DNA from: Verrucomicrobiia bacterium
GTDB taxonomy: Bacteria; Omnitrophota; Omnitrophia; Omnitrophales; Aquincolibacteriaceae
DNA: 64,000 bases
Assembly (NCBI GenBank): GCA_035495615.1
Contig: DATJFP010000051.1
Coordinates: 364-64,363, forward strand
Direction of reading: 5' to 3'
Each line of letters begins with the position of its first letter. The stretch's first letter is position 1. Position numbers and translations under genes: made by a program. The notes below the pieces were generated by a model. The model had not been told where the DNA came from. It worked only from the letters and a program-made list of their open reading frames with translations, and did no database searches. Below, in pieces: positions 7,391 to 31,691 of this stretch.

Positions 7391-7548
7391 GTCCCGATGC
7401 TAGCCCCTGCGAAGGGGAAATGACATAAGGGGAAATCGCGGACCAGGGTCGAAAATTCCCTCAAAATCCGGCGCGTGTCTTTTCCCTCCGCGCATCCGAG
7501 GGACTCATTGGTCTTGCCGGGCCGGCGAAGCCTGCCTATACTCTCTTC

Positions 7549-14567: not shown

Positions 14568-15055
14568 TGCGTCTCACCGGCCTGCCGCCGCTCACTCCTG
14601 AGCGTCCCCGGCTGCTGCTCCTCGGAACCTTTCCCGGCGTGCTCTCGCTCCAGAAGCGGGAATATTACGGAAACCCGATGAACGGCTTTTGGAAAATCCT
14701 GTGCGGCGCGCTCGGCGTTTCCGAGGTGCCTGCCGCTTACGCGGAAAAAAAGCGGATGCTCCGCCGGCACGGCATTGCCTTGTGGGATGTTTTCGGCTCG
14801 TGCGAGCGAAAAGGTTCCGGCGATCACATGATCCGGAATTTCTGCGTGAGCGATGTGCCGGGATTTTTAAAAAAACATCCGTCCATCCGGAAAGTGATTC
14901 TCGAAAGCCGCACCGCGGAGAAAATCTGGAAAAGCCATTTCGAAAAGCACACGTCCGTTCCCGGCGTTTATGTGCCTTCGCCGAGCAGCCGCGCGCGGCT
15001 TCCGCTGCCGGAAAAAATCAAGTGGTGGAAAAGGGCTTTGGAGAACGGCAAATAA
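14567..15055 (+). CDS. Uracil-DNA glycosylase superfamily protein (DNA-deoxyinosine glycosylase/HDG-like)
   Basis: LLLGTFPGVLSL...YYGNPMNGFWKIL matches the family 6 HDG signature (GSFPS...YYAHPRNxFW). Confidence 0.65.
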   Translation: MRLTGLPPLTPERPRLLLLGTFPGVLSLQKREYYGNPMNGFWKILCGALGVSEVPAAYAEKKRMLRRHGIALWDVFGSCERKGSGDHMIRNFCVSDVPGFLKKHPSIRKVILESRTAEKIWKSHFEKHTSVPGVYVPSPSSRARLPLPEKIKWWKRALENGK

Positions 15056-15097
15056 GGCCCCGTTGACGGGGAACCCGGCGCTTTCTATACTGCACGC

Positions 15098-16123: not shown

Positions 16124-17285
16124 GATCAGCAGCCGCACGCAGGCCTTTACCGAGTCCGTCATCCGCCGCATGACGCGCGTCGCGCATCAGACCGGCGCCG
16201 TGAACCTGTCGCAGGGATTTCCGGATTTCGATCCGCCGGCCAAACTCCTGGAAGCGCTGAAAAACATTGCGCTGAAAGGCCCGCACCAGTATGCCGTGAC
16301 CTGGGGCGCGCAGAATTTCCGCGCGGCGCTGGCCAGGAAGCAGAGCCGCTTCATGGGCATTCCCATCGATCCGGACGCGAACATCGTCGTGACCTGCGGC
16401 AGCACCGAAGCCATGATGGCGGCCATGATGTCCGTCACCAATCCCGGCGACAAGGTGATCGTGTTCTCGCCTTTCTACGAAAATTACGCGGCCGACGCGA
16501 TCCTGACGGGCGCGGTCCCGATCTACGTGCCGCTCGAGCCGCCGTCTTTCGAGATCAACCGCAAGGCGCTGCGCGCGGCGTTCGAGCAAAGGCCCAAGGC
16601 GCTTGTCCTTTGTAATCCCGGCAATCCCACGGGCAAGGTGTTCACGCGCGGCGAGCTGCTGGAGATCGCCGCGCTCGCGGAAGAATTCGACGTGTTCGTC
16701 CTGACCGACGAAGTCTACGAGCACATTGTCTACGCGCCGCACCGCCATACTTATTTTGCGTCGCTTCCCGGCATGTTCGAGCGCACCGTGTCGTGCAGCT
16801 CGCTTTCGAAAACGTATTCCATCACGGGCTGGCGGCTCGGCTACATCATCGCGCCGCCTAAAGTCGTGGACGCGGCGCGCAAGGTGCATGATTTCCTGAC
16901 CGTGGGCGCGGCCGCGCCGCTGCAGGAAGCCGCGGTCACGGCGCTGGAGTTTCCGGATTCGTATTATCTGGAGCTGCAGGCGCATTACACGAAAAGCCGG
17001 GACCTGTTCCTCGGGCTGCTGGCCGGCACGGGCCTCAAATATACGGTGCCGCAGGGCGCTTATTACGTGATGGTGGACGTCAGTGAATTTAAGCCGCAAA
17101 GCGACGTCGAATTCTGCGAATGGCTGGCCCGCGACGTGGGGGTCGCGGCCGTGCCGGGATCGAGTTTTTTTCGAGAAGACGTGCGCCATTTCATCCGTTT
17201 CCATTTCGCGAAAAAAGAAGAAACGCTGCGCGAGGCGGGAAAACGCCTGTCGTTTTTGCGCGAACGCGCGTGGAGGCGCGCATGA
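16116..17285 (+). CDS. ybdL: PLP-dependent aminotransferase class I, methionine aminotransferase YbdL-like
   Basis: NLSQGFPDFDPP, SLSKTYSITGWRLGY (PLP lysine region) and FCEWLARDVGVAAVPGSSF are recalled as close to E. coli YbdL. Overlaps the upstream stop by 8 nt. Confidence 0.75.
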   Translation: MPEISSRTQAFTESVIRRMTRVAHQTGAVNLSQGFPDFDPPAKLLEALKNIALKGPHQYAVTWGAQNFRAALARKQSRFMGIPIDPDANIVVTCGSTEAMMAAMMSVTNPGDKVIVFSPFYENYAADAILTGAVPIYVPLEPPSFEINRKALRAAFEQRPKALVLCNPGNPTGKVFTRGELLEIAALAEEFDVFVLTDEVYEHIVYAPHRHTYFASLPGMFERTVSCSSLSKTYSITGWRLGYIIAPPKVVDAARKVHDFLTVGAAAPLQEAAVTALEFPDSYYLELQAHYTKSRDLFLGLLAGTGLKYTVPQGAYYVMVDVSEFKPQSDVEFCEWLARDVGVAAVPGSSFFREDVRHFIRFHFAKKEETLREAGKRLSFLRERAWRRA

Positions 17286-17992
17286 TTCCCTGGGTCCTGA
17301 TCGACACCGCGCCCATGCCGGGCGGCAAAGACCTCAAGCTCTACCGGCACGACGCGGACTTCGCGATCCGTTCCGGCAACGTGGAAGTCATGAACAGCCG
17401 CATGCACGGTTCCGAAGAAGTGCTGTCGGACATGGCCTGCGCGCAGATCGCCAGGATCGAAGAGCCGCGCCTTTTGATCGGCGGGCTGGGCATGGGATTC
17501 ACGCTGAGGGCCGCGCTGAACAGGCTTCCGCCGAAGGCGAGAGTCACGGTCGCGGAGCTCGTGCCCGCGGTGGTGAAGTGGAACCGCGGCGTGCTGTCGG
17601 AGCTGGCCGGGCATGCGCTCAAAGACAAACGCGTCTCGGTGGTGGTGGAAGACGTGTCGAAACTCATCCGCGACGGCAAGAACGGGTATCATGCCATCAT
17701 TCTCGACATCGACAACGGGCCCGGAAGCGTGTGGCGGGACGAGAACAACGCGCTCTACAGCGAACGCGGGCTCGAGGCCGCGTTCCTGGCGCTTCAGCCC
17801 CGCGGCGTGCTGGCGGTTTGGTCGGCGGGACCGGACCGCGGCTTCACGCGCGCGCTCAACCGCGCGGGCTTTGACGTGAAAGAAGTGCCGGTGCGCGCGC
17901 GCATCGACGGCAAGGGCGGCGGCCACCATCATCTGTGGCTCGCGCGGCGTTTCACCGCGGCGCCGCCTCTCATCAATCCGAAACGGAGATAA
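17282..17992 (+). CDS. Spermidine/spermine synthase-like protein (short form)
   Basis: GGLGMGFTLRAAL (Gly-rich SAM/dcSAM loop) and HAIILDIDNGP (the D-S-S-DP position of SpeE). ATGA start/stop overlap. Confidence 0.55.
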   Translation: MIPWVLIDTAPMPGGKDLKLYRHDADFAIRSGNVEVMNSRMHGSEEVLSDMACAQIARIEEPRLLIGGLGMGFTLRAALNRLPPKARVTVAELVPAVVKWNRGVLSELAGHALKDKRVSVVVEDVSKLIRDGKNGYHAIILDIDNGPGSVWRDENNALYSERGLEAAFLALQPRGVLAVWSAGPDRGFTRALNRAGFDVKEVPVRARIDGKGGGHHHLWLARRFTAAPPLINPKRR

Positions 17993-17996
17993 GGGC

Positions 17997-18203
17997 ATGG
18001 AAAATACGGAAAAGCGCATCATCGAGCTCGAGAAAAAGATGGCCTTCCAGGAGCACACGATCGAGCAGCTCAACGAAGTCGTCATCCTCCAGCAGAAAAA
18101 GCTGGAAGCTCTCGAGCGCGAAACCAAACAGCTCAAGCAGCAGGCCGCGAGCGGCGCGTTCATCAAAAAGCCGGAAGAAGAAACGCCGCCGCCGCATTAT
18201 TAG
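17997..18203 (+). CDS. slyX: SlyX family protein
   Basis: RIIELEKKMAFQEHTIEQLNEVVILQQKKLEALERE matches the SlyX consensus. Confidence 0.8.
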   Translation: MENTEKRIIELEKKMAFQEHTIEQLNEVVILQQKKLEALERETKQLKQQAASGAFIKKPEEETPPPHY

Positions 18204-18208
18204 AAAGG

Positions 18209-18258
18209 CCCCTCTCCCTAACCCTCTCCCCAAGATGGGGAGAGGGAAGGGTGAGGGG
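18209..18258. terminator. GC-rich hairpin (CCCTCTCCCC-AAGAT-GGGGAGAGGG), probable terminator after slyX
   Basis: Perfect 10-bp inverted repeat with an outer imperfect pair. No T-tract follows, so it may act as a factor-dependent terminator or RNA stabiliser. Confidence 0.45.
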
Positions 18259-18266
18259 AATGAATC

Positions 18267-19061
18267 ATGAAAATTTTAAATCTTTCAATCGTCCTTATGC
18301 TTCTCGCGCCCGCGGCGTGGGCCGCGCCCGCCGTCATCGGCAAAGTGGAGCGCGTGCGCGGCCCGGTCGAATGCGCGGACGAGACGGGCGCCAAGCGCGA
18401 GCTCAAAAACGGCGGCGACGTTTACCTGCGCGACGTGATCGAGACCGGAAGCAGAGGCTATGTCAAAATCGACCTGCTCGACAAGACCAGCCTCACGGCC
18501 GGCGCCTCGAGCCGCCTTGTCCTCGACGAATTCGTTTATGACGCGGACGCGCGCTCGGGCAAGGCCGCGTTTTCCCTGGCGCGCGGCCTCTTCCGCCTGG
18601 TGACGGGCGAGATCGTAAAGCAAAATCCGGAGAACATGAAGGCCTCGCTCGCCGTGGGCGATTTCGGCATCCGCGGCACGGCCGTCCTCGCGCAGACTTC
18701 CGCGGACGGATCGCGCGTCGTCCTCGAAAGCCGGAGGCAGGACGCGCAGCTCGTGCGGCACGTCGTCGTCGGAGGCAGCGAAGCGAACGGCCGGCGGGGT
18801 GAGACCGCGCTGGAAAACGAAGGCGAGGCCTGCGACGTGAGGCCGGGGCAGCTGCCGGGCCAGAAATTTGCGCTCGGCGCGAAAGTCCTCGAAGCGATGC
18901 AGCAGGCTTTGGAACCGCCTTTGGAAGACGACGTTTTCGACCAGGTCGACAAGCTCAATGGGTCTCGTTCCGGCCGTCCGGGCGTGCAGCCCCGCGACAT
19001 GGAAGGCGGGCAGGAAAATGACGATTCGCAGCCTTCGCACGAAACCCGCTCCGGACAGTAA
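18267..19061 (+). CDS. FecR domain-containing secreted protein
   Basis: Signal peptide. GDVYLRD...TSLTAGASSRLVLDEF...ARGLFRLVTG...GIRGTAVLAQ follows the FecR beta-sandwich pattern. Confidence 0.55.
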   Translation: MKILNLSIVLMLLAPAAWAAPAVIGKVERVRGPVECADETGAKRELKNGGDVYLRDVIETGSRGYVKIDLLDKTSLTAGASSRLVLDEFVYDADARSGKAAFSLARGLFRLVTGEIVKQNPENMKASLAVGDFGIRGTAVLAQTSADGSRVVLESRRQDAQLVRHVVVGGSEANGRRGETALENEGEACDVRPGQLPGQKFALGAKVLEAMQQALEPPLEDDVFDQVDKLNGSRSGRPGVQPRDMEGGQENDDSQPSHETRSGQ

Positions 19062-19184
19062 AAAAATCTTTCGGATCCTCTTCAGTATCTGCTAGCACGA
19101 AGAAGCAAGACGACGCATCCCTGACCCGTCAAAATCGGGCTCTCTAGGCAGGCGCGGAAACAGTGGGTAAACTCTAACAACCCT

Positions 19185-22100
19185 ATGCGCCTCCTTACGT
19201 TCTGCAAAAAAACAACGGCCCTTTTTCTCTGCGCATCCCTGCTGCTTTCCGACGGCTCTCTTTATGCCGCGGCCACGGCCACGCCGTCCCAAGAGCTCGC
19301 GTTCCGGCTTCCCAAAACCTTCGCGGAGGTGCAGGAATCTTTCCGCGGGACTTCGGGGAAAACCATTTTTTATCTCCAGGACGCGCACGATTCGCTGGAA
19401 GCGCAGCGCAACATTGCCCGCAGCATCCGGTTTCTCGTCGAGAAGTACGGCGTGCGCACGGTTTTCGAAGAAGGCTACGAAGGCCCCGTGCCCACGGCGC
19501 GTTACTTCGGCTTCATGAAGGACGCGGCGGCGCGCAAAAAAGTCTCGGATTTCCTGCTCGACAAACTCAGGATCGGCGGCGCGGAGTACGCGCACATCAA
19601 CCGCGCGCACGACTTCAGGCTGATCGGCGCGGATGATCTTGCCAAATACAAAAAGAACCTGGCGGCTTACCGCGAATCCGCGCGGCATCAGAACGAAGTG
19701 GAGCGCGACCTGCGCGCGATTTCCGCCCTCGTCGAAGCGCTCGTCCAGCGCGATTTCCCGAAACCGCTCAAAGACTGGCTGAAGCTCCGCGACCGGCACG
19801 AAGCCGGGCAGGCGGACCTTCTGGATTACGTGAGGCGCGCCGTGAAGATGGCGGAGAATCCCGCGGGCGCGCCGCATCTCGCTCTTCTGGCCGAGGCTCC
19901 GGAATCTTCGGAAGCCGCGGCGGAACTTGCCGCCGTGGAGCCCCGCGCGATTTTCGAAGAGCTCGGCACGCTCGAGCAGGCCATTGCCGCGCCATTCCTG
20001 AAAACGCCCCGCGACCTCGAGCTTTTCCGGTACCGCGAGGCGCTTCACCTGCTGCTGCGGCTGAACCGGAGGGACGTGACGTCCTCGGAGTACGAGGCCT
20101 CGCAGCAGACGCTGGCCGACCTCGACACGCAGAAGCTTGCCGGATTTCTCGCGCGCGAGACCGGAAAATCCCTGGCGCTTTCCAGGGCCTGGGAGAAAAG
20201 CCTGCGGACCGCCTCGCTTTTTTACGAGACCGCGCTCGAGCGCGACGGCGCGGTCGAGGCCGCGCTTTCGAAGTTCCTGCGGGAGCCCGGCGAAAACGCG
20301 GCCGTCCTCGTCTACGGCGGCTTTCACAAAGACAACATCCTCGCCATCCTCAAAAAGCTGGGCGTTTCCTATCAGGTGGCCGCGCCCGCCATTCCCGCGC
20401 CGGATCCGGTGCATGAAAATTATTACCGGCAGCTCATGACGCTCGGCAGCCTCGCGTACGAACGGCCTTTCATGGCCGCGGGCGCGGCTGCGAAAGCCAC
20501 ACGCGCGCCGTCGTCGTTCGTGGAACCGTTCGGCGAAGCCGTGATCGGCGGCCTTTACCGCGCGGCCTCGCGCAATCCCCGCGTTTCCGCGGAGCTTCTC
20601 GACCGCGTGCTGGAAACATCGGGCAAATCCGAACTGCGGCGGCTGGACGACTTCAAGCTCAAGCGGCTGACCTACATCGATCTCGAGGGAGCCGAGATGG
20701 ACGAGCTCCTCGGCATTTACCAGCACATCCGCGAAAGCATGGAAGCTTCCGGCTATGAAGCGCTCGAGGAATTCGGGGACGACAGCCGTTTCCTTCATGT
20801 CGTCGAGAGTTTGAAAGAGACGAGTTACGGCATCACGAACGGGGAAGGCAACCTCGTCGGTTTTGTTTTGAATAACCCCTATCCCGCGGCAGGCGATGCT
20901 TACCTGGGCATCGAGCTCATCGGCATCGATCCGGAATATCAGCGGGAAGGATTTGGGCGCCGTCTTCTCGCCATGAGCCAGGTGCTCGGACGCAAGCTCG
21001 GGAAAAAGGCGCTCGCGATCGACGTGGATCCGCAGAATCTTCCGATGATCCGGCTTGCCCTCGGATTCGGTTTTCATTTCGTGGACCGGAACTGGAGGCG
21101 CCGGCGTTACGCGGGCATGATCAAGAACATTCCGCCGCTTAACGGCCACGACTCCAAAGCCGGCCGCGCGGAACTCCGCACCGGTGCCGATGCACCGGTA
21201 CAGCCAAACATTCCGCGCGCCGAACGCGCGGAATTGCGCCGCCTCAACGAGGCCCATACCGCCGCTGTCGTATCGATTTCCGATCTCGACGACGACGAGA
21301 CAGACGGCTTGCTGGGAGTTTATCAAGGCATCCGCGAAAATATGCTCCGCCAGGGCTTCGAACCTTATCAGGAATTTCAGGACGACGAAATGTTCGTTTC
21401 CGAAATGGAGAGGCTGGAGGAGGCAAGTTTCGCGGTGACGGATCAAGACGGAAACATGGCCGGCTTTATTTTGAACGATCCCGAGCCCGATGTGGGAGAG
21501 CAATATCTCGAAGTGGAGCTGATGGGCGTCGATCCCGGCCAGCGCCGGCAGGGCCACGCGCTCCAGCTTCTGGCCGCGAGCCAGTCGCTTGCCCGCCGGT
21601 GGGGAAAAACGGCGCTGTGGCTGGAAGTCGAGGCCAGCAACACTTCGGCCATCCGGCTTTATAAAGGCTTCGGCTTCAAGACCGCGGGCCGCGGCGAAGA
21701 GTCCGGTTACATTGTGATGAAGAAATACCTCCGGCATCACGCCCACGGCCAGCGTGAGGACAGATTCCGCGCGGAGCTGCGCTCGATCTATGAGCCCTGG
21801 CTTTTGAAACTGGCGGCCGACGCGCGTGTCGGCGTGAGGGATTTCGAAAGCACGGGCAAAGGTTTTCTCAAAATGACCGCCCAGCCGTTCGCGGACGGCG
21901 TGGTCGCGGCGTTTCCGGCGGATGCGCGGGGAAAAGTTTTTGTCGCGGGAAGCGGGCAGGGCCTTTTCGAAGTGAAGCTCGCGAAGGAGCGCCCGGGACT
22001 CTCGATTTTCGGCGTGGAATACGATCTCGGGCTTTTGGGCGACAGCCAGCGAATCGCGGCAAAGGCCCAGGAGCAGAAAATCATCAATCCCGGGCAGGTT

Positions 22101-25100
22101 ATTTTTCAGGGCGGCGACTTCAACGGCGCGGAATTCGGCGCCCGCATTGCCGAAGCGGATTATGTTTACTACTACGACGGCGGCACGAAAAAACCGGACG
22201 ACCTGGCGGAAACGCTTATCCGTTCCATGAAACCGGGCGCGCGCCTGATCGTGTTCGGTTCGCAGCGCTGGGAGCCGGATTTTGTGGACGCGCTGCGCCG
22301 CTCGGGCTCTTTCAAGCTCGAAACCGATGATCGTCCGGTTTATGTGCTCCTCCGGGAAGACCAGCCGTGGAAAACCGAAAACCGCGCTGAGCTCCGCTCC
22401 GGCGTCCCGCAGTGGCTGGAAGAGCTGATGCGCGAAAAGGGCATCGCGCTGCGGGCCGACGAAAGCACGGAGGCCGGAATTCTCGTGCCCACGGCGGGCC
22501 AGGCCGCGGCGCAGGTCATCAGTGCCGTGCCGGAAAAAACAAAGTTGAATATTTTTGCCGCGGGAAGCGGGCAGGGGATTTTCGAGCTGCAGCTTGCCAA
22601 AGAAAGGCCGGACGCGGAAATCTTCGGCGTCGAATATCATCTGGGCGCCCTCGGTGAAAGTCAGGCCCTTGCGGAAGAAGCAGAGAAAAGAAACCTCATC
22701 AAACCGGGGCAGGTCCAATTCGCAGGCGGGAATTTCAACAAGCCCGACTTTGCCGGCCGCATCGCGCAGGCGGACATTGTTTATTATTTTGACCAGGGAA
22801 CGAAGTTCCCCGAAGAATTCGCCGAAACACTTCAGCGTTCCATGAAAGCCGGCGCCCGCCTCATCGTCCTGGCCGCGGGCTCACGGGAGCCGCATCTTTT
22901 GGATGCGCTGCGCCGCTCGCTGGCGTTCGAAACGGAAAGCGCGGCCCATCCCGTCTATGTTCTCCGCCGTCTTGAAGCCGAAGGAGATGCCGCGCAAGGC
23001 CGCGCGCTTCTGAGGCAGTGGATGAAAAACGCGCCCGCCCTTCTCGAGCGTCCGGCGCTGGGCGCCGTGGTCGCGCTGCCTCCCGCGGGCACGAAACTGG
23101 ATGCCGATCCGGCGCGCCATGAACTCATGATGACGGCGCTTGTGGAGCGCCTCGTCGAAATCTACCGCGGCAATTTCCCCGATGCCTCTCCCGAAGAGAG
23201 AACGCCGGAGCATTGGCGCAAACAGCTGGAAGACCCGGACCTGCGCCTGCTCCTCAAAGTCGACACGCAGGGCCGCATCGAGGGCATGCTGGTGGCGCAA
23301 AATTGGGGAGTGGAACGCCCCACGCTGATGCTGAAAACCGTGGCGGTCACGTTCGAAGAGCAGCTGAAAAAGAAGGGGGCCATGCTCCTGGATGCTTTCC
23401 TGCGCGAAGTGCACGCGGCGGGCCTTGCCGCGGACATCTGGTGGCTGACCAACTTCAGGGTGATCTCGCTTTATAAAACCTATTTGTCCCGCCGCGGCAT
23501 TCCCTTTCGCTTTGATGATTACAACAAGTTCGAAGTCTCGGTCAAGGATCTGCGGGACTTCGTGAAGTCCAGCCGCTTTCCGCCTCCGAAACAGCCCGGC
23601 GATGTCGAGGCCCGTCTCGCCAAAAGAGTGCAGATCTGGGAAAAGACATATACGCTGGCCCACGTCGTGCGCGCGCTCGAGCACCGCTCAGGCCAATGGA
23701 GGCTGGGGCCCGCGATGTTCGAAGAGCTCGGCGAGGAAGACAAGGTCCTTGTCCTGGCCGCGCTTTCCGGAGAAACCCGCCGGCGTCTGGATTTTAATCT
23801 TTTGATCCAGGAATCGTGGGACGACGCCATCGCCCAGGCCGGCGGCGACGCGGGCAAAGCGCTGACGGCCCGCGAAAACGGCGCCGCGCTGCGGAAACTT
23901 TTGAGCACCCAGGTCTTCGAGGTTGGAAAACGTTTCGATGCGACCGGCATCGAAAACGGGTTCGACGACCTGGCGCAGATCATGCTGGAAGGCAAGGTGC
24001 GCTCGGACCATCACGGCTCTCTTATCGGCCATGCTCAATTCGGCGACACGGCCTCCGGGCTGCACGGCCCGCTCTACGTTGTGTTCAAAAAACGGACCGC
24101 GGATGAAACCTGGCGCGAAAGGGACAACCACCTTTATTACCTCGTTCCCGAATGGAGCGACGCGCGCGCCTACGTGATCCTGCTCCAGAAAGCCGCGGCG
24201 CGCCATTTGATTCTGCCGGAGCTCGCGGCCTCGATCGCGCAGAAAATCATCACCTACCGGCAGTTCGTGGACCGGAATTCAGAGCTGCGTTCCGCGGACC
24301 GGCGTTTGTCTCTGGAAGAAATTCTCGGGCCGGAACACGTTCAAATCATGGACCGCTTTTTCGCCGAAGGCTATTGGATCGAGCTCGAAGGCGCCGGCCG
24401 TGAAAGAAAGGTTCTTGTTCACCATCGTGATCCTTCGAAATTCCGCGCCTACCAGGAGCCGCCGGGAAAATATTCCCTCGTCGAGGCAGAAAATGGGACA
24501 GCCCAGCTCAGCGGCATTTATCCCGGCCTTCCTCAAAATACCCAATTCGGCCGCATTTTCATCGCGTTGTCGCTGCTCATGCTTTATGGGGACCGCGAGG
24601 CGCGCAAAATTTTTGAAATCCATGCTATCCAGAGCAAGACTTTGGCCGGAAGCCTGCAGAAGCTCGGGGCCTTCGGAACCGCATCGATCTACCCCGCGGC
24701 CGCGCACGGCGCCTATGCCGATGTCGCCATCCGCGGAAGCGTGCCATTAATCGACGAGGCCGGAGCCGCCGAGATCCGCCGGCGGAATGACCGCAATAAA
24801 TCTGCCGGGGAACAGCAACACCCCGAATTGCGCGGGTTGGAAGAGGTTCGCGCCTATCTGGACAGCCGGCCGCACGCGGTTTGGTATGCAAGCTACGACG
24901 AAGCCGGGCAGGAATCCGTCGAGTACGTGAATCCTGCGTTCGCGAAAATATTCGGCACCACCGCGGAGGACATCCTCGCCAAGAAGACGTATGCGGCGAT
25001 CAACCCTCCGGGTGCGCCCATCGACAAGTACAAGGCCGACGACCGGAAGGCGATGAAACGCGGCCTGTTCGCGGCGCGCGAAGGCGAGCCCGCCGTTACG

Positions 25101-28100
25101 GTGGTGAAAATCAAAATGGGAAAAGGCGTTTTGGGCATGTTCACGCCGGCCGCGTCCAAGGGAAAGCTTTCCTTTAAGAATCTGGAGCCGGAACTTGCCG
25201 AAACCCTGAGAGAATTCAATTACACTTCCGGAACTTTCCTCACGCGCCGCGAAAAAAAGATGATCGAGCATTCCTATCATAACGGCTTCCTGCGGCAGGG
25301 GGACGTCCCGAGTCGCCCGCTCTGGCTTTTCGGCGAGCATGAAGCGGTCATGCCGTTCGTGGCCAGTCAGTTCGGAGAATCAGAAGTGCCCGTCGTGGCG
25401 CCGGAACTTTACCGCGATAAGCGCGTTCTCGTGGCCCCTGGCTACGGTAATCTTCCATTCCTGGTGCGGATGCTCGGCGCGCGCGAGGTCGTGGCTGTTG
25501 ACAGTGATCCCGTGACGATCGCCTGGCAAAAATTGAAATGGAAAACCGGCGGCCGTGACGCGATGCAATGGCTTTTTACTTACGAGCATTCCGGGTCCAT
25601 CCCGCGCATGCATCATCGCGGGACCTGGTATGCCAGGCTCAACCGCCCTCAGGCGGCGGACGTGATGACCGGGCTTTCTTTTTATACGGACAACGTCCTG
25701 AAGCCTCTCGGCCGCGGCAAATTCGATTTGATCGTGACGCCTTATTTGTTCGGATTCCCGGGCGGCCTTGACATGGAAGAGCTGGCCAATCAGGCCCTGG
25801 ACAATTTCCGGGAAAGCCTGGCCGAAGGCGGCCGTATTCTGATCCTGCCGGGAAAAATCGAATCAGCTCAGATTGCGGAAAGCCGCTCGAAAGATATTTT
25901 TCAGCACTACCAGGAATGGCTGGAAGGCCTGAAGGCCAAAGGCTGGGATGTGCAGTACAGCGAGGCTTACCCGTTTTATGATTTCAGCCAGGGGAATGTC
26001 CAGGGCCGCTACGCGATCCTGACGCCTCCGAAATCCGAGCTTCGAGCGGCGCAGACCGCGCTCGAATTGAAGGGCTTCGACGACAGAGCGCCGCTCTGGG
26101 CTTTTCTCATGGCCTTCGGCATCGACCCGGCGCGGGCACGCGTGAAGCCTCTCGAGGATAAATGGGGACGCGTGGAAGTCGCGCAAGACGCAGTGTTCGG
26201 CGTGCCCGCGGGCAAGCCGCTTCAGGATGCCGTCTACGAAAGCGCCATGGGCATTTTCGGCGAACGCGAGATCGAGCCGCTGTTGGAAAAGAACGGGCAC
26301 TCGAAGGAAACGGCCCTCAACTATCTTTATCTTCTGACCTATGAAAATAAACCCGCGGCGCTGGTCTGGGCCATTCCGGGCGCGCCGTTTTCTCCCATCC
26401 CGTTTTATTCGTTTACCGTCCAGAGCCAGGCGTCTTTCTGGCAGAGTCCGGGCGGGGGACAAGCTCAAACTTTCGCTGACGCGCGTCTCGAGGAGTTCAT
26501 CCGCCGGCACCACAAAAAAGATTACGGCAAAAACCCTGTTCTGCAGGGAGGCATCCCTCTTGATGCGGCCAATAACGGCATCCGCGGGATTCCCTGGCTT
26601 CAATTGAGGGAATTCAAAAACGGCGTAGTCCTTCCGACCGTATTTACCCTGGACCATGATTCGACACAGGATCTTTGGACGTTCGTGCAGCGCGTCGAAA
26701 GTTTGGGGATCGTCAGCCTGGCCGGCAAAACGGTCTCCGAAGTGGGCGCCGGCGCGGGATGGCTCGGCGCGCAAGCCGCTTCGCGCGGCGCGCAGGCCGC
26801 GCTTTACGATTTGACTCTTATCAAGGCCGCAAGCGCGTGGCTGACGGCCAAACGGAACGGTGTCGCGGACAACGTCTCTTCTTTCCGCTCGAAGGACGCT
26901 TCCATCCTGCCGCCCAGCGATCTTTATCTGTGGAACATTCCCGATTTTTCAAATCAAGCCCCCGATCTTTCCAAGGGCGGGCCCATGACGCAGAATGACA
27001 ACATCGACGTCAACAACCGCGTCAGGCCGGAAGACGTCGAAAAAGTTTTCCGCGAAGTGCGCGCCAAGGCCAAGCCGGATTCGCTTTTTGCCGTGCGCAT
27101 TAACACCAAGGACAAATCCGCGTTCCGGCATTTGGCACGGGCCGCGGGATGGGAAATTCATCCCCGTGAATTGGACATCGATACCAAGGATTTGGCCGGC
27201 GGCCTGTATTTTGTGCTTCAGCCTTCGCGTCCGGAGCCCAAGGACATTCGAGCCGTGCTCCGCCAGGCAAAATCCGTAGAGGATTATGCGGGCTTGGGCC
27301 GCATGGTCGACGTGGAAGAGGTTCTGCGCCTTCTCCCGCTCGAGGAAGAAAGGCAGGCGCTCGGCAGCGCGCTTTTTGAGGTGAGTAAGACGGCGTTTGA
27401 AATGGACGTGGACGAGGACTTCGTGCCCGTGCCCCTGGTTTCCGATGCTTCTGCGCGGCGCTTCTTTTTCGTGGATGATACGGGCTCGATCACGGGATAT
27501 GTGAAGTTCCGCGTCAAAGAGGGCGAAGCCTTTCTCGATGACATCGAGACGCTGAAGATCACGGACCGGAAGCCCGGACGCGGGCAGATCCTGATGAACT
27601 ATGCATTGCGCCAGATGAGAAAGGAAGGGTTCGGCCGCGTGATTTTATATCCCACGGAAAAAGCGATGCCCTTTTACGACACTTATGCTCAGGCGCGCGG
27701 CCTGGTTTTCGGCCTGGTCGATCCGCTGCATGACCGCTACAAATTTTTCATCGATTTCTCCGGCGCGCCGGACACAGCCCTGCAAAAAATCGTCCTCAAG
27801 GAATCCGGCCATCCGGAGCTGCGCGCCGTTCCCGACGAGACTCTGGCTTCGATGCTGTCCGCGGCTTTCGAGCAGGCGTTCCTTGGGCATCAGGCCTTCC
27901 TGGCTCCGGAAGACGAACGGCGTTTCGAAGCCATGCCGGACATCGAAGTGGGCGAGGAAGAAGAGTTCCCGCGCTTTCCGTTCCGTTTCAACGGCCCGGA
28001 CACCGTGCGCGTTTCCCGCTCCTTTCTCCAGATGCTGCAAAATCCCGCGGGCGCCGGCCTCATGCCCGGCCCTGAGTGGCTCCGCGAAACCGCGAGCGTT

Positions 28101-31100
28101 ATCGAAAAGAGGCGGGCCAATCCTCTGTCGGAATACGTTTACAACACCGTGTTCATGGAAGCCTTGAACGCCTGGCGCCGCGCCACGGGCCGTGAGGTTC
28201 CCGAGATGGAAATCATCGAGATCGATCCGGGGCAGTTTCCTCCCTCGGAGCCGGCGGGACAACGAAAAGTCCCGGCGTCCGAAGACCTGGTCAGCGGGGT
28301 GGACGCCATGGTCGCGCGGGTCAATAAGCTTGCCGCAGAAGCCGCGGCGGAAATCGGCAGCGGCACCGTGACCGCTTATTATGATGGAAGCGAAGCGGGC
28401 GCCGTCCGGGTCCGGGGCGGAAAAGTTCCCGAAGGCATGACGCTCGGATGGAAGACCGCGCTTTTCGTGGGCGAGGAGATCGCGGGCTCGGGACAGACGG
28501 ACCGCCTGCCCGAAGCCGACGAATTCCTTCGCGTCACGCGCGAAGGTTCGGCGATCAAAGTGGAGCTGGTGAAAAGCGAACTGCGATCGACGAATGGCGA
28601 AAGCGAAACCGAAATCGAGACGTATGAATTGAAACGCCGAAGCGCGCCGGAGGATGATTTTGCCAAGGTCACGCTTTTTAAGGACGCGTCCGGCGTGATC
28701 CAGGAAGCGTACCTCACGTTTGCCGAGCGCAAGGTCGAGGCCGTGGTCAAACAAAAGACCGTGCAGGCCAAAGAAGTGCGCTGGATCAAGATGGACATCG
28801 AGAAAAAGCAGGCCGTCAATTTCGTGCGCCTGAAGAACGCGAAGAACGAAGTGATCGAAACGCGGCAGTTTCCGCACAAAGATTTGCAGCCGGATTATTT
28901 CGCGGACATTCAGGACGCGGTGCTCGCTCTTTCCGATCAGATCGACGAGCTCAAGGCGCGCCGCGTCGACGGCGACGACCAGAGCCCGGAAGCGCTTTCG
29001 CTCGAAGAATCCCTTCAGGCGCTCGTCCACGTGCGCCGGCTCGTGGGCAATGTTTTCCGCGCGGCGCCGGCGCCGGATTTTGTTTCCATCACGCTCGGGC
29101 CGCACCGCGAAATCAAAGTGCGCCTTATCCAGGACGAAGCCGCGGGCGAACTGCGCGCCGTGTTTCCGTTCTCGGAAGAGCCGGAGCATCACGAACAGCA
29201 TCAGTTCGTCATCACGATCAATCCCCACGCGCAGCCGGCGGTCGCGATTCACATGTACGTCCGCCGCGTCCACGAAGGCGAGCTGATCGATGCGCTCGAC
29301 GTGAGGCCCGGGCCGGGCGAGCCCGCGCACGCGGACACGGGCTTCAGCTTCGAAGACCCGGAAGCGGAAGAAGACCAGGATTACGAACTCAGCATGTCGG
29401 ACATCCAGATGGCGCTCGAAGACTGGTTCGAGAGCCTGCCCGCGGAGCAGCAGACGCCTTTCCTGCGCGAGCGCATTTTCGAAACGCTGGCCTCGCTTTT
29501 CAAGGAATCCGAAGACGCCGCGCCTTCGCGCACGCTTGCCGAACACGCGGCCCTTTACGCGCCGGCCTTTGAATTGATGTCGGCGGCGGGGCGGAAGGAA
29601 CAGATTGTCCGCGAGCTGCGGCTTATCGGGAACCGCGCCAAGGCGCTTTCGGCGCGCGCGAAAAAATACGAATGGCTGGAGAATCTTTCGCTGGTCGCAT
29701 TTCTCCTGAGCGTGCGCCTGGAAGAAGCGAGTGTCAACTTTACCTCACGGCATCCGGAAATCCTGGAAGTGACCGTGGGATTTTTCGAGCAGTTCGGCGA
29801 AGTCTTTCCCGCCCTGACCGAAGACAGCACCCTCCTGGGACGGCTTTCCAAAAATCCGGGGCAGGAATACGAGCTTCTCATCCAGCTCGCGGAGGTCCTC
29901 CGCAATGAATTGCGCGCGGAAGATCTCGACGAGGGCACGCTCCACAAGTGGATCAAGGGCAATTACGTGGGGGATCTGGCGGCCTGGATCCGCGACCCGA
30001 ACGCGGCGCCGGAAGTCCGGCTTGACCGCGCGCGGCGCTACCTTATCGGGGCCGGCCTCATCCCTCATCATGGCGCCGTGCTGTCGGCCGTCGCGGCGGA
30101 GACGGGGCAGCACGTGGAGAATTACGTGTACCGGATGAACGAAGAAATCTTCGATCGCCTGGAAACCATGGCCCGGGAAAAGAAAGGTTACGTTCCCGGC
30201 GTGATTTATTTCAACGACGAAGGCCTGCTGCGGAATTTTTCCGCGCCGCTGGCCGCCTTGCCGGAGGTGCATTCGGAGCTTGCCCAGCGGTTTTTCGGCG
30301 TCGAAGGCATCAAGCTTCTGCGCGAAGTCCTGCCGCCGCAATCCGAAGAACACTGGTGGAATACTCTGGGGACCCTTGAAAATCCCGAGGGCATGCGGCA
30401 GTGGATTCTGGACACGCTCGTGCCGTCTTTGCGCGAAGCCAATCGCCGGAAATTTCGCCCGGAACTGCGCTCCGCGAAAAGTGAAACCGCGGAGGCGGAT
30501 TTCGAAGCGTCGGTCCGGAAATTCGCTTCTCTTGTGCGCCGCGATACCATCCTGGCTCTGGGTGAAAATCCCGACGACGAGAAATCCATGCTGGAATGCC
30601 CGATGTGCGCCATGGCGACGCCGCTGATAAATAATCTGGCGGCCGAATTTTTCAAGAACGATCCCGCCGTCAAGGTTGAAAGCTGGGGCGGGCTGGTGAG
30701 GCAAGCGGGCTCCGAAGGGCAGGCGAATCCGCCTTCCTTTTTCCATTTCTGGACGGAGATCGAACGGGAAGGAAAACGTTTTTACGTCAGCGTGATGGAC
30801 GGCCAGATGGGCGTGAGGGAATGGGCCTTGGGACCGAACGTGACCGAGCTTCCGGCCGGAGACGGCAAATACGAATTCTTGAAAAGTTCCGGATGGCGAA
30901 TCGTCATGGCTGAAAAACAGGACATGATGCGCATCTACCGGTTTGTCGCGCGGCTTTCGAATCTCCAGCATTTCGAAGACGCCGGAAGCCCTCTCCACAG
31001 CGCCGAAGCCGTGCGGGACCACTTGGGGCGGATGGCTTCGCTGTTGATCAAGGAAGGTATTTTCCAAGGCAAGACGGAACTTCGCACTGCCAGAAACAAA

Positions 31101-31691
31101 GCTTTGGATGCCGTGGGGAAAAAATCCCTGGAGCAGTTTGCAATGCCTGCCGCCGTTTTTCTGGAGGCGCGCGAGCTGGTCCAGCTGACCCCGGCCCAGT
31201 CGAGCCGGCAATGGGAAGAAATCCTGACGCTCGTCTCCCTGCACAAAGGGCTCGACGTGTACATAACCGGCACGGACCGTTATCCTCTTTCGAACCTGAA
31301 ACTCCCCAAACTCCAGAAACTCCTGGCCGAACATTCGGACCGCCTCCATCTGGGCCTGCACGACCGCGCGAATCTCGCCAAAAAGAAAATTTTCATCCAG
31401 GCGTCTTTTATTTCCGGCGGCACGGCGAAGGACACGGAAAAGCTGCTGGCCTCGCTCAAGCAAAGCTATGGCATCCGCCAAGCCGTGTATGCGCTGGATT
31501 ACGCCCAGGCCGGCGCCTTGCGCGCTTTTCTCGGCATCGCGGAATCTTTCAAAGAAGCCGAGCTCATCCGGCAGATCGGCGAAGCCTACGCGGTCCGCGG
31601 GCCGAACGGGCGCTGGCAGATCGCGCAAACCTACCTGAACTCGGTCTGGACCGAGATGCAGAACCGCTACGCAGTTGCCTGGTCCGCGTAA
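19185..31691 (+). CDS. Giant secreted multidomain protein (4168 aa). It combines a possible Tiki/ChaN-like N-terminal domain, four GNAT acetyltransferase-like modules, four Rossmann SAM-methyltransferase-like modules, a PAS-like module and a ~1300 aa helical C-terminal region.
   Basis: A 12.5 kb open frame in a 64% GC genome. N-terminal signal peptide (MRLLTFCKKTTALFLCASLLLSDGSLYAAA). GNAT Q/R-x-x-G-x-G/A motifs: QREGFGRRLL, QRRQGHALQLL, PGRGQILMNYAL. Rossmann G-x-G-x-G motifs: VAGSGQG, AAGSGQG, EVGAGAGWLG, VAPGYGN. PAS-like stretch VEYVNPAFAKIFGTTAEDIL. Confidence 0.8.
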   Translation: MRLLTFCKKTTALFLCASLLLSDGSLYAAATATPSQELAFRLPKTFAEVQESFRGTSGKTIFYLQDAHDSLEAQRNIARSIRFLVEKYGVRTVFEEGYEGPVPTARYFGFMKDAAARKKVSDFLLDKLRIGGAEYAHINRAHDFRLIGADDLAKYKKNLAAYRESARHQNEVERDLRAISALVEALVQRDFPKPLKDWLKLRDRHEAGQADLLDYVRRAVKMAENPAGAPHLALLAEAPESSEAAAELAAVEPRAIFEELGTLEQAIAAPFLKTPRDLELFRYREALHLLLRLNRRDVTSSEYEASQQTLADLDTQKLAGFLARETGKSLALSRAWEKSLRTASLFYETALERDGAVEAALSKFLREPGENAAVLVYGGFHKDNILAILKKLGVSYQVAAPAIPAPDPVHENYYRQLMTLGSLAYERPFMAAGAAAKATRAPSSFVEPFGEAVIGGLYRAASRNPRVSAELLDRVLETSGKSELRRLDDFKLKRLTYIDLEGAEMDELLGIYQHIRESMEASGYEALEEFGDDSRFLHVVESLKETSYGITNGEGNLVGFVLNNPYPAAGDAYLGIELIGIDPEYQREGFGRRLLAMSQVLGRKLGKKALAIDVDPQNLPMIRLALGFGFHFVDRNWRRRRYAGMIKNIPPLNGHDSKAGRAELRTGADAPVQPNIPRAERAELRRLNEAHTAAVVSISDLDDDETDGLLGVYQGIRENMLRQGFEPYQEFQDDEMFVSEMERLEEASFAVTDQDGNMAGFILNDPEPDVGEQYLEVELMGVDPGQRRQGHALQLLAASQSLARRWGKTALWLEVEASNTSAIRLYKGFGFKTAGRGEESGYIVMKKYLRHHAHGQREDRFRAELRSIYEPWLLKLAADARVGVRDFESTGKGFLKMTAQPFADGVVAAFPADARGKVFVAGSGQGLFEVKLAKERPGLSIFGVEYDLGLLGDSQRIAAKAQEQKIINPGQVIFQGGDFNGAEFGARIAEADYVYYYDGGTKKPDDLAETLIRSMKPGARLIVFGSQRWEPDFVDALRRSGSFKLETDDRPVYVLLREDQPWKTENRAELRSGVPQWLEELMREKGIALRADESTEAGILVPTAGQAAAQVISAVPEKTKLNIFAAGSGQGIFELQLAKERPDAEIFGVEYHLGALGESQALAEEAEKRNLIKPGQVQFAGGNFNKPDFAGRIAQADIVYYFDQGTKFPEEFAETLQRSMKAGARLIVLAAGSREPHLLDALRRSLAFETESAAHPVYVLRRLEAEGDAAQGRALLRQWMKNAPALLERPALGAVVALPPAGTKLDADPARHELMMTALVERLVEIYRGNFPDASPEERTPEHWRKQLEDPDLRLLLKVDTQGRIEGMLVAQNWGVERPTLMLKTVAVTFEEQLKKKGAMLLDAFLREVHAAGLAADIWWLTNFRVISLYKTYLSRRGIPFRFDDYNKFEVSVKDLRDFVKSSRFPPPKQPGDVEARLAKRVQIWEKTYTLAHVVRALEHRSGQWRLGPAMFEELGEEDKVLVLAALSGETRRRLDFNLLIQESWDDAIAQAGGDAGKALTARENGAALRKLLSTQVFEVGKRFDATGIENGFDDLAQIMLEGKVRSDHHGSLIGHAQFGDTASGLHGPLYVVFKKRTADETWRERDNHLYYLVPEWSDARAYVILLQKAAARHLILPELAASIAQKIITYRQFVDRNSELRSADRRLSLEEILGPEHVQIMDRFFAEGYWIELEGAGRERKVLVHHRDPSKFRAYQEPPGKYSLVEAENGTAQLSGIYPGLPQNTQFGRIFIALSLLMLYGDREARKIFEIHAIQSKTLAGSLQKLGAFGTASIYPAAAHGAYADVAIRGSVPLIDEAGAAEIRRRNDRNKSAGEQQHPELRGLEEVRAYLDSRPHAVWYASYDEAGQESVEYVNPAFAKIFGTTAEDILAKKTYAAINPPGAPIDKYKADDRKAMKRGLFAAREGEPAVTVVKIKMGKGVLGMFTPAASKGKLSFKNLEPELAETLREFNYTSGTFLTRREKKMIEHSYHNGFLRQGDVPSRPLWLFGEHEAVMPFVASQFGESEVPVVAPELYRDKRVLVAPGYGNLPFLVRMLGAREVVAVDSDPVTIAWQKLKWKTGGRDAMQWLFTYEHSGSIPRMHHRGTWYARLNRPQAADVMTGLSFYTDNVLKPLGRGKFDLIVTPYLFGFPGGLDMEELANQALDNFRESLAEGGRILILPGKIESAQIAESRSKDIFQHYQEWLEGLKAKGWDVQYSEAYPFYDFSQGNVQGRYAILTPPKSELRAAQTALELKGFDDRAPLWAFLMAFGIDPARARVKPLEDKWGRVEVAQDAVFGVPAGKPLQDAVYESAMGIFGEREIEPLLEKNGHSKETALNYLYLLTYENKPAALVWAIPGAPFSPIPFYSFTVQSQASFWQSPGGGQAQTFADARLEEFIRRHHKKDYGKNPVLQGGIPLDAANNGIRGIPWLQLREFKNGVVLPTVFTLDHDSTQDLWTFVQRVESLGIVSLAGKTVSEVGAGAGWLGAQAASRGAQAALYDLTLIKAASAWLTAKRNGVADNVSSFRSKDASILPPSDLYLWNIPDFSNQAPDLSKGGPMTQNDNIDVNNRVRPEDVEKVFREVRAKAKPDSLFAVRINTKDKSAFRHLARAAGWEIHPRELDIDTKDLAGGLYFVLQPSRPEPKDIRAVLRQAKSVEDYAGLGRMVDVEEVLRLLPLEEERQALGSALFEVSKTAFEMDVDEDFVPVPLVSDASARRFFFVDDTGSITGYVKFRVKEGEAFLDDIETLKITDRKPGRGQILMNYALRQMRKEGFGRVILYPTEKAMPFYDTYAQARGLVFGLVDPLHDRYKFFIDFSGAPDTALQKIVLKESGHPELRAVPDETLASMLSAAFEQAFLGHQAFLAPEDERRFEAMPDIEVGEEEEFPRFPFRFNGPDTVRVSRSFLQMLQNPAGAGLMPGPEWLRETASVIEKRRANPLSEYVYNTVFMEALNAWRRATGREVPEMEIIEIDPGQFPPSEPAGQRKVPASEDLVSGVDAMVARVNKLAAEAAAEIGSGTVTAYYDGSEAGAVRVRGGKVPEGMTLGWKTALFVGEEIAGSGQTDRLPEADEFLRVTREGSAIKVELVKSELRSTNGESETEIETYELKRRSAPEDDFAKVTLFKDASGVIQEAYLTFAERKVEAVVKQKTVQAKEVRWIKMDIEKKQAVNFVRLKNAKNEVIETRQFPHKDLQPDYFADIQDAVLALSDQIDELKARRVDGDDQSPEALSLEESLQALVHVRRLVGNVFRAAPAPDFVSITLGPHREIKVRLIQDEAAGELRAVFPFSEEPEHHEQHQFVITINPHAQPAVAIHMYVRRVHEGELIDALDVRPGPGEPAHADTGFSFEDPEAEEDQDYELSMSDIQMALEDWFESLPAEQQTPFLRERIFETLASLFKESEDAAPSRTLAEHAALYAPAFELMSAAGRKEQIVRELRLIGNRAKALSARAKKYEWLENLSLVAFLLSVRLEEASVNFTSRHPEILEVTVGFFEQFGEVFPALTEDSTLLGRLSKNPGQEYELLIQLAEVLRNELRAEDLDEGTLHKWIKGNYVGDLAAWIRDPNAAPEVRLDRARRYLIGAGLIPHHGAVLSAVAAETGQHVENYVYRMNEEIFDRLETMAREKKGYVPGVIYFNDEGLLRNFSAPLAALPEVHSELAQRFFGVEGIKLLREVLPPQSEEHWWNTLGTLENPEGMRQWILDTLVPSLREANRRKFRPELRSAKSETAEADFEASVRKFASLVRRDTILALGENPDDEKSMLECPMCAMATPLINNLAAEFFKNDPAVKVESWGGLVRQAGSEGQANPPSFFHFWTEIEREGKRFYVSVMDGQMGVREWALGPNVTELPAGDGKYEFLKSSGWRIVMAEKQDMMRIYRFVARLSNLQHFEDAGSPLHSAEAVRDHLGRMASLLIKEGIFQGKTELRTARNKALDAVGKKSLEQFAMPAAVFLEARELVQLTPAQSSRQWEEILTLVSLHKGLDVYITGTDRYPLSNLKLPKLQKLLAEHSDRLHLGLHDRANLAKKKIFIQASFISGGTAKDTEKLLASLKQSYGIRQAVYALDYAQAGALRAFLGIAESFKEAELIRQIGEAYAVRGPNGRWQIAQTYLNSVWTEMQNRYAVAWSA

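Follow-up and report, generated by a model that had tools for sequence, protein, structure and literature searches.

Giant multi-enzyme open reading frames (ORFs) of Omnitrophota are known from West-Roberts et al. 2023 (10.1101/2023.11.21.568195), Seymour et al. 2023 (PMC10066038), and a 2026 preprint (10.64898/2026.06.07.730766). Internal Pfam repeats occur in 65% of Omnitrophota proteins of at least 10 kAA (thousand amino acids), with their nucleotide similarity dissolved (10.64898/2026.06.07.730766), and cleavage-point information is described as lacking by West-Roberts et al. (10.1101/2023.11.21.568195). Here, we analyze a gene of this kind, a giant ORF lying within a 64,000-nt window from a Verrucomicrobiia bacterium that GTDB places in the Omnitrophota (assembly GCA_035495615.1, contig DATJFP010000051.1, positions 364–64,363 of the forward strand). 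Nucleotide coordinates are positions in this window, and amino acid (aa) numbers refer to the 4,168-aa product of the giant ORF. The published giants come from the same phylum as the named relatives of the window protein and share with it methyltransferases (MTases), GNATs, PAS or signaling domains, an N-terminal signal peptide and, in its relatives, radical S-adenosylmethionine (SAM) enzymes; at 4.2 kAA the window protein is smaller and falls under the size cut-offs of those surveys.

MARTX toxins likewise consist of one large secreted polypeptide that carries an array of interchangeable enzyme or effector modules, and these modules are released by a built-in protease that cuts short inter-module sites. 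Secretion of MARTX toxins depends on a type I C-terminal signal and repeats, whereas the window protein appears to use an N-terminal Sec-type signal instead, and its processing is only proposed. The MARTX effector RRSP is a TIKI-family endopeptidase (PMC6254334). The TIKI domain of MARTX toxins is a cargo and not the processing enzyme. Neither RTX or glycine-rich repeats nor a cysteine protease domain gave a Pfam or NCBIfam match anywhere in the giant protein, which rules out its being a MARTX toxin itself. Viral polyproteins resemble the window protein in having domain-sized units, a short and strict peptide between them that differs among lineages, and spacer peptides between paired sites. 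The window gene differs from them in being cellular and chromosomal, with an ordinary bacterial neighborhood and no recognizable viral-type protease, and here too cleavage is only proposed.

Adjacent paralogous modules within the giant gene

A previous inspection of the letters and ORFs of this DNA (the sequence-only reading) had proposed two pairs of adjacent paralogous modules in the giant gene, a GNAT pair (~20640–21120 versus ~21230–21700) and an MTase-like pair (~21870–22340 versus ~22510–22980). Chunked self-BLASTP of the 4,168-aa product shows the expected off-diagonal similarity at coordinates that agree with this proposal, and these two sets are the only off-diagonal matches in the protein. 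In the GNAT pair, aa 481–666 align with aa 681–867 at 45% identity (best E 5.7e-32), corresponding to nucleotides 20625–21182 and 21225–21785. In the MTase-fold (MT) pair, aa 862–1079 align with aa 1067–1281 at 50–58% identity (best E 4.7e-43), corresponding to nucleotides 21768–22421 and 22383–23027. Profiles made from each pair found no third copy of either module in the giant protein. More distant domains of the same types occur elsewhere in the gene, in windows 23028–24281, 24825–26036, and 26037–27815.

In global codon alignments, the GNAT copies share 42.5% of their amino acids and 55.2% of their nucleotides, with a third-position identity of 0.41, and the MT copies share 51.4% and 60.3%, with a third-position identity of 0.46. 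BLASTN between copies gave 59.6% identity over 411 bp for the GNAT pair and 61.5% over 587 bp for the MT pair. The DNA identity of about 70% estimated in the sequence-only reading was thus too high, the measured range being 55–61%; its remark that synonymous changes are numerous is borne out, as different codons encode 34 of the 79 identical residues in the GNAT pair and 52 of the 111 in the MT pair. By the Nei–Gojobori method, synonymous divergence (dS) is ~1.38 for both pairs, nonsynonymous divergence (dN) is 0.56 for GNAT and 0.42 for MT, and dN/dS is 0.40 and 0.31, respectively. Both pairs are true paralogues, and these values indicate old duplications that have been kept by purifying selection, which is the age and the protein-level selection that had been read from the letters.

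The closest relative found is a protein of 1,807 aa (P0001; P-numbered proteins are matches of an exhaustive HMMER search with the MT cassette, and L-numbered entries are metagenome loci). Its single GNAT and single MT cassettes follow each other as in the window protein, and its end is unlike the usual C terminus of the family. The two GNAT copies of the window protein (GNAT1 and GNAT2) are 46.7% identical to each other and 51.5% and 53.8% identical, respectively, to the single GNAT of P0001. For the MT copies (MT1 and MT2), the mutual identity is 52.7%, against 52% between MT1 and P0001 and 43% between MT2 and P0001. By these pairwise identities, the duplications are about as old as the split from the P0001 lineage. 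No relative carries more than one copy of the MT-type cassette, and internal paralogous cassettes, mostly in tandem, are found in 16 of 116 family proteins.

We estimate a probability of roughly 80% that the giant gene has undergone two ancient tandem duplications of whole enzyme cassettes, a GNAT of ~180 aa and an MT of ~205 aa, with both copies kept under purifying selection and their cofactor motifs intact, the duplicated unit being the cassette with its delimiter in a modular giant protein. Taken alone, the duplications are a further example of the faded old internal repeats already reported for long Omnitrophota proteins.

Enzyme families of the duplicated cassettes

The GNAT model PF00583 matches the whole giant protein in 4 stretches with 130.5 bits (E 4.5e-38; cut-off 20.7 bits). 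Its best stretch, aa 725–831, is GNAT copy 2, and copy 1 alone scores 42.4 bits (E 9.9e-11). The acetyl-CoA-binding motif A of GNATs is Q/R-x-x-G-x-G/A, and in the codon alignment it reads Q-R-E-G-F-G in copy 1 and R-R-Q-G-H-A in copy 2. Both copies are assigned on these matches to the GNAT acetyltransferase family, as labeled in the sequence-only reading, and their activity is predicted. Two additional GNAT domains lie near aa 1320–1430 and 2750–2830.

The MTase assignment comes from structure prediction. In an AlphaFold2 model of aa 676–1080, MT1 forms a confident MTase domain with a predicted local distance difference test score (pLDDT) of ~90. Foldseek returned more than 1,000 matches to MT1 in the PDB at E <=1e-3, with class I SAM MTases at the top (TrmI, NovO/CouO, DOT1L, and aKMT; E 3e-9 to 1e-7, probability 1.0). 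The MT cassette shares with TrmI (m1A58), NovO/CouO, DOT1L, and aKMT the Rossmann-type MTase fold and a G-S-G-Q-G followed by an acidic G-x-E, and it differs from them in having only 13–21% identity. MTase motif I is A-G-S-G-Q-G in both MT copies, followed by an acidic G-V-E, and an alignment of 10 MT cassette sequences shows no variation at G61 and E84 and almost none at G63 and G65. Cofactor-binding motifs are therefore retained in all four duplicated modules. No Pfam MTase model exceeded its cut-off in the giant protein; Methyltransf_12 reached 22.4 bits (cut-off 30) and Methyltransf_4 21.0 bits (cut-off 24), the latter falling to 14.1 bits with MT1 alone. The model thus places pair 2 in the class I SAM MTase fold and, because the Pfam scores stay below cut-off, in a divergent, unnamed family of that fold. 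The original label of “MTase-like” holds at the level of the fold and finds no Pfam model above threshold.

The MT-type cassette is found mainly inside giant proteins of the family, with a few shorter carriers. In the exhaustive HMMER search, the strongest matches (E below ~1e-10) lie nearly all inside giant proteins of 1,300–7,800 aa. Word-index searches, which are insensitive for this family, gave no homologue at E <=1e-5 with aa 468–1292 and only one generic UbiE/UbiG-like MTase with the MT-cassette alignment. Stand-alone MT-like homologues, P0014 (462 aa) and P0015 (267 aa), have their own signal peptides and are without the punctuation motif described below. These two proteins suggest that the MT-fold domain works outside the cytoplasm of its producer.

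A five-residue motif at the cassette borders

The sequence-only reading overlooked that each duplicated unit is a complete cassette with a recurrent E-L-R motif at its borders. No tripeptide of the giant protein is more over-represented than E-L-R (15 occurrences versus 2.9 expected), and [ASPT]-E-L-R occurs 12 times versus 0.75 expected, where the highest count in 2,000 shuffles was 5. The 12 instances have the context [RKHN]-[SAPT]-E-L-R and begin at aa 481, 661, 681, 862, 1067, 1698, 1879, 2283, 2876, 3130, 3758, and 3963, so that the motif punctuates the whole giant protein at domain-sized spacing. In the other 42 genes of the window, it is near chance (4 versus 2.4; [SAPT]ELR 4 versus 1.4). 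All four duplicated modules span exactly one motif to the next, and the homology between copies begins and ends at motifs; the unit of duplication is one cassette together with its delimiter motif. In the AlphaFold2 model of aa 676–1080, all three motifs lie in stretches with pLDDT <50, beside the confident MTase domain.

Among the 12 instances, the codons of the motif vary synonymously: glutamate is GAA or GAG, leucine is CTG, CTC, TTG, or CTT, and the final arginine is CGC, CGG, CGT, or CGA. At the second position of the motif, the codons TCC, TCA, AGC, GCG, GCT, CCG, CCC, and ACG are used. Because of this synonymous variation, selection acts on the peptide and not on the DNA. At the end of MT2, the motif has decayed to R-A-L-L-R by a change of E to L, and Q-W follows it, as at the start of the MT cassette.

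A family of modular giant proteins

The giant ORF belongs to a family of modular giant proteins whose named members are proteins from Candidatus Omnitrophota metagenome-assembled genomes (MAGs). Its giant relatives share with the window protein a signal-peptide-like start, a conserved N-terminal domain, many unrelated cassettes, and a C-terminal end of the form x-[SA]-A. The N-terminal domain, ~400 aa long, was detected in 18 of 32 large HMMER matches. Searches with this domain gave 37 homologues at E 1e-111 to 1e-33, and all named ones are proteins of Candidatus Omnitrophota or Omnitrophica MAGs; it was also found in 80 metagenome loci and in one GTDB Omnitrophota MAG. A look-up of the exact sequence of the giant protein returned no database record.

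R-[SAPT]-E-x-R is found 3–24 times per protein versus ~0.5 expected, at a median spacing of 287 aa, in the window protein and 25 matches, out of 33 large proteins. The logo of the motif is R90, S74/A18, E100, x (L, A, M, or V), and R100, and the flanks are almost without information. A second set was picked by the N-terminal domain alone; its 83 non-redundant genes, taken from 80 metagenome loci and amounting to 186 kaa (thousand residues), contain 389 motifs versus 19.2 +/- 4.5 expected. R[SA]ExR was counted 366 times, and variants are rare, at 10 for K[SA]ExR, 5 for R[SA]DxR, 8 for RE[SA]xR, and 3–26 for most of them; R.E[SA]R occurs 62 times, but this pattern overlaps true motifs such as RSEAR. 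Replacement of R by K or of E by D is almost never accepted. Compositional bias as the cause of the motif is ruled out by the nearly information-free flanks and the rarity of scrambled variants.

The motif also marks the limits of homology between family members. High-scoring segment pairs (HSPs) from BLAST between family proteins cross a motif 178 times versus 493 expected, and a motif is found within 10 aa of 21% of HSP ends versus 6% by chance. Motifs stand on either side of the MT cassette in at least 8 relatives, where it is 200–220 aa long and occupies quite different positions in the protein, and the cassette order of the window protein differs from that of P0001. Motif spacing is bimodal, with spacers of 10–60 aa and cassettes of 100–700 aa. 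The short double-motif spacers have no conserved sequence and make up ~13% of inter-motif intervals in the family. Family members range in size from 941 aa (L073) to more than 7,800 aa; in a small example, gene 1 of L001 (1,259 aa), a single radical-SAM-like cargo and a spacer lie between the N-terminal domain and the tail. Several contigs (L001, at 5720–9496 and 12554–23983; L013; L033; and L073) hold two family genes, some of them in tandem, and both genes have an N-terminal domain.

An x-[SA]-A end is present in 27 of 34 large matches and in 33 of 42 complete metagenome genes, versus 4 of 118 small proteins. It sits behind an amphipathic helix and is kept even in lineages with another punctuation motif. 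A jackhmmer comparison of the C-terminal tail of the window protein with other tails found no homologous tails, the shared elements being the terminal helix and x-[SA]-A only. The x-[SA]-A end may be a secretion or tail-recognition signal.

By these comparisons, the common build is a signal peptide, a conserved N-terminal domain, a variable number of shuffled cassettes separated by motifs, and an x-[SA]-A tail. Duplication, exchange, and rearrangement of cassettes at motif borders appear to be how genes of the family gain length and diversity.

Lineage-specific punctuation

In some relatives with the same C-terminal end, R-S-E-x-R is entirely absent and another short motif is equally enriched at domain-sized spacing. 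P0026, in which the N-terminal domain is present, contains G-A-R-L-[AST] 18 times versus 0.17 expected, and P0021 contains GARLA 5 times. G-x-S-L-G occurs ~8 times in P0022 and [AP]-E-[AQ]-A-M ~10 times in P0106. L015 and L028 are enriched in GFGA, which is a candidate punctuation motif on this ground. The x residue of R-S-E-x-R is itself specific to genes or lineages, with RSELR only in L005 and L074, RAEVR in L027, and RSEMR in L022. A strict sequence, free flanks, and a “word” that differs among lineages form the pattern expected of a site that is read by a specific, coevolving partner, as protease sites of viral polyproteins are, and the motif may be such a site.

Searches of the literature with the motif strings, or for Omnitrophota together with polyprotein or cleavage site, gave nothing relevant; their coverage is incomplete, and an earlier description elsewhere is possible. 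In the searchable text of the three reports on giant Omnitrophota proteins, there is no description of R-[SA]-E-x-R, its alternatives, the N-terminal domain, or the x-[SA]-A end.

The conserved N-terminal domain

The alignment of the N-terminal domain has D66-A67-H68, E95-E96-G97, R129, E134, H137, and R140 as invariant residues and a GGFH close to aa 380. Sequence searches of the PDB with a single sequence and with a profile gave nothing useful. An AlphaFold2 model of the domain has a pLDDT of 84, and its best PDB fold matches are Bcr135 (3b55/2rad), HopBA1 (5t09), and ChaN (2g5g), all of which are listed as TIKI-superfamily structures (PMC6254334). This superfamily includes the proven endopeptidases Tiki and RRSP, whose site consists of two His, two Glu, and a conserved basic residue (PMC6254334). 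Residues H68, E95/E96, E134, H137, R129, and R140, together with GGFH, would fit a TIKI-type site. The layout is also shared with TIKI, TraB, ChaN, and erythromycin esterase, in that a strand ends in x-x-H (here D-A-H), the next strand ends in E-E, conserved Arg residues are present, and a C-terminal strand precedes G-G-F-H. Sub-threshold matches to PF04187 (ChaN, Tiki superfamily) cover the “ERD...GGFH” part of the domain.

Kinship with the TIKI superfamily is weakened by the quality of these matches, which for Foldseek are at E 0.02, probability 0.77, and TM-scores of 0.17–0.19. The best PF04187 match, in P0002, scores 23.9 bits (E 4.9e-5), below the cut-off of 27.7; a second sub-threshold match has E 8.5e-5 (1 of 27 homologues), and PF04187 has no match in the window sequence itself. 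The domain further differs from the superfamily in a ~200-aa helical insert that splits the core, and all scores are below family thresholds. The N-terminal domain may thus be TIKI-like. No adjacent gene is conserved across ~80 loci, and the N-terminal domain is present in each gene copy, including those of tandem pairs; both points speak for the domain as a candidate processing enzyme. That it is the processing hydrolase we nevertheless consider rather unlikely, and we treat this as a lead and not as a finding.

Features of the giant gene and its surroundings

The features of the giant gene are collected in Table 1. Its frame is uninterrupted over 12.5 kb, and its G+C content at third codon positions is 0.73, which is coding-like. 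A Kyte–Doolittle scan of the giant protein found no second hydrophobic segment besides aa 1–30.

Table 1. Features of the giant gene, by window position, with residue numbers of the 4,168-aa product
Feature	Position	Strand	Evidence
Giant ORF, 4,168 aa	19185..31691	+	ORF list and translation
Signal-peptide-like hydrophobic segment, aa 1–30, MRLLTFCKKTTALFLCASLLLSDGSLYAAA	19185..19274	+	Kyte–Doolittle scan; starts of relatives alike
Conserved N-terminal domain, aa ~40–425, possibly TIKI/ChaN/EreA superfamily with ~200-aa helical insert	19302..20459	+	Alignment, AlphaFold2 model, fold matches
GNAT cassette copy 1, aa 481–660, opens with K-S-E-L-R (20625–20639)	20625..21164	+	Self-BLASTP, PF00583 E 9.9e-11
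R-A-E-L-R (21165–21179) and 15-aa spacer, forming a 20-aa mini-interval between two motifs	21165..21224	+	
GNAT cassette copy 2, aa 681–861, opens with R-A-E-L-R (21225–21239)	21225..21767	+	Self-BLASTP, PF00583 best stretch 725–831
MTase-fold cassette copy 1 (MT1), aa 862–1066, opens with R-A-E-L-R (21768–21782)	21768..22382	+	Self-BLASTP, AlphaFold2, Foldseek
MTase-fold cassette copy 2 (MT2), aa 1067–1277, opens with R-A-E-L-R (22383–22397)	22383..23015	+	Self-BLASTP
Decayed motif R-A-L-L-R closing MT2, aa 1273–1277	23001–23015	+	
Punctuation motif N-S-E-L-R, aa 1698–1702	24276..24290	+	
Punctuation motif H-P-E-L-R, aa 1879–1883; a PAS-like and MTase-like module comes next	24819..24833	+	
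Punctuation motif K-S-E-L-R, aa 2283–2287	26031..26045	+	
Punctuation motif H-P-E-L-R, aa 2876–2880, immediately behind the fourth GNAT domain	27810..27824	+	
Punctuation motif K-S-E-L-R, aa 3130–3134	28572..28586	+	
Punctuation motif R-P-E-L-R, aa 3758–3762	30456..30470	+	
Final punctuation motif K-T-E-L-R, aa 3963–3967	31071..31085	+	
C-terminal tail module, aa 3968–4168, ends A-W-S-A (31677–31688), the family-typical x-[SA]-A	31086..31688	+	

Further along the protein, there is a PAS-like stretch near aa 1892–1960, a weak MTase-like Pfam match at aa 2514–2566, and a G-x-G-containing stretch near aa 2100, the last spotted by eye in the translation only. Long antisense ORFs overlap the giant gene at 19092–22718 (−), 27645–29546 (−), and 29745–31628 (−), with lengths of 1,208, 633, and 627 aa; with GC-rich first codon positions, they are most likely by-products of high G+C and not genes. 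A promoter and terminator scan 5′ of the giant gene detected none, and tRNA and Rfam scans of the whole window gave no matches.

The window neighborhood is ordinary for a bacterium, with RND/MMPL transporters, an aminotransferase, and a glutamine amidotransferase. A FecR-domain gene lies directly upstream of the giant gene (18267–19061), and three RND/MMPL-type transporter genes are found at 12399–14567, 39926–42334, and 54968–58099, including a full AcrB-like pump (PF00873, E 2e-275). The transporter and FecR-domain neighbors are not conserved beside family genes elsewhere, and outside the giant gene there is no synteny between the window and L001. Across ~80 loci, no conserved neighbor gene for a protease or transporter was found, the best cluster being present in 6 loci.

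Discussion

The repeats could in principle be an expanded or mis-joined assembly product, for which nothing speaks beyond the general risk of metagenome assembly. At 55–61% DNA identity, the copies have no long identical stretches that would mislead an assembler, and the frame stays open for 12.5 kb. In addition, an independently assembled metagenome contig from the Joint Genome Institute (JGI; L002, Ga0310810_10030194) is 99.4% identical to window 15594–22184, with 32 mismatches and 5 gaps in 6.6 kb. Because of this identity, the same population has been sampled elsewhere. The contig follows the window through GNAT1 and GNAT2 into the first part of MT1, in the same order, and ends short of the MT1/MT2 junction. 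An artefact is thereby refuted for practical purposes, as the sequence-only reading had maintained. The motif itself might act as nucleic acid, for example as a recombination site or RNA element, instead of as a peptide, since the borders of cassette shuffling coincide with it. With synonymous variation at every one of its codons across the 12 instances and no Rfam match, this explanation is very improbable; the codon variation rules out a role at the DNA level. We also regard it as improbable that the second copies were imported from another family gene by recombination at motif-coding borders, by cassette exchange instead of tandem duplication. Import would accommodate the different cassette orders of the window protein and P0001 and the several family genes per genome, and the closer similarity of GNAT1 and GNAT2 to the GNAT of P0001 (52–54%) than to each other (47%) counts against duplication in place. 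On the other side, like adjoins like twice in succession, MT1 and MT2 are at least as alike as either is to any other family member, and the MT-type cassette is single-copy in all other family proteins carrying one. The offset between copies is moreover the cassette length, as is usual among the 16 proteins with internal paralogues, and motif codons that are not conserved as DNA leave little substrate for homologous exchange. Because each GNAT is closer to that of P0001, the GNAT pair was probably, but not certainly, duplicated in place and not imported as a cassette.

What the motif does is a separate question, for which two answers deserve weight. The motifs may be recognition or cleavage sites, so that the giant protein would be a polyprotein cut into single enzymes and short spacer peptides; we give this somewhat less than an even chance. 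Alternatively, the protein may stay whole, with the motif as a linker element of structural or regulatory use (such as a docking site, a hinge, or a signal for folding to pause) in a permanently tethered multi-enzyme scaffold to which the duplications add active sites. We consider an intact scaffold plausible but doubtful. It agrees with published work, which mainly treats these proteins as single giant polypeptides and leaves cleavage open, and with the finding that no dedicated protease gene is conserved beside the family genes; cleavage is moreover purely predicted, and in some relatives the motif abuts the last MTase strand without a linker. A structural element should nevertheless keep its chemistry, yet the punctuation is unrelated across lineages (RSExR, GARLA, GxSLG, and AEAAM). 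Near-complete rejection of K for R and of D for E beside unconstrained flanks is likewise hard to square with a scaffold linker, as are the placement of the motifs in stretches of low pLDDT and their frequent pairing around short spacers of no fixed sequence.

If the motifs are processing sites, an exported precursor would release a fixed-ratio set of GNATs, MTases, radical SAM enzymes, and others, together with short spacer peptides. The motif (R-S-E-x-R here; GARLA, GxSLG, or AEAAM elsewhere) would be cut between cassettes, and the N-terminal, possibly TIKI-like domain of each copy may do the cutting. Tandem duplication of a cassette with its site would tune the released set, and the duplications described here would double the dose of two released enzymes or permit their divergence. 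With the motif behind MT2 decayed, MT2 would remain joined to the next, GNAT-containing module. In its widest form, in which giant genes of the Omnitrophota type encode true bacterial polyproteins, with the lineage-specific punctuation as cleavage site and the N-terminal domain as coevolving processing enzyme, the proposal is tentative and rather unlikely.

Several observations weigh against these readings. R[SA]ExR does not strictly go together with the N-terminal domain, since P0023 and P0026 have the domain without this motif, and P0008, P0009, and P0018 are rich in the motif without a detectable N-terminal domain. A conserved linker motif could serve another purpose, cleavage being predicted from sequence alone, and the relatives in which the motif directly follows the last MTase beta-strand number several. 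GNAT and SAM enzymes behind a signal peptide are also hard to reconcile with the need for cytoplasmic cofactors.

Together, these data expose a simple building rule for the family: a strict five-residue motif, different from lineage to lineage, delimits the cassettes, which are placed between a conserved N-terminal domain and a conserved C-terminal end. By this rule, family members are recognizable at any size from ~940 aa up. The motif also offers a rational way of splitting giant proteins for structure prediction and annotation, and it supplies exact, testable candidate sites for asking if the giant proteins of Omnitrophota work uncut or in pieces. The closest functional analogy is the logic of MARTX toxins, in which an array is released at short inter-module sites. 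If processing is confirmed, cells would have in this family their own counterpart of viral polyproteins and MARTX-type multi-effector toxins.

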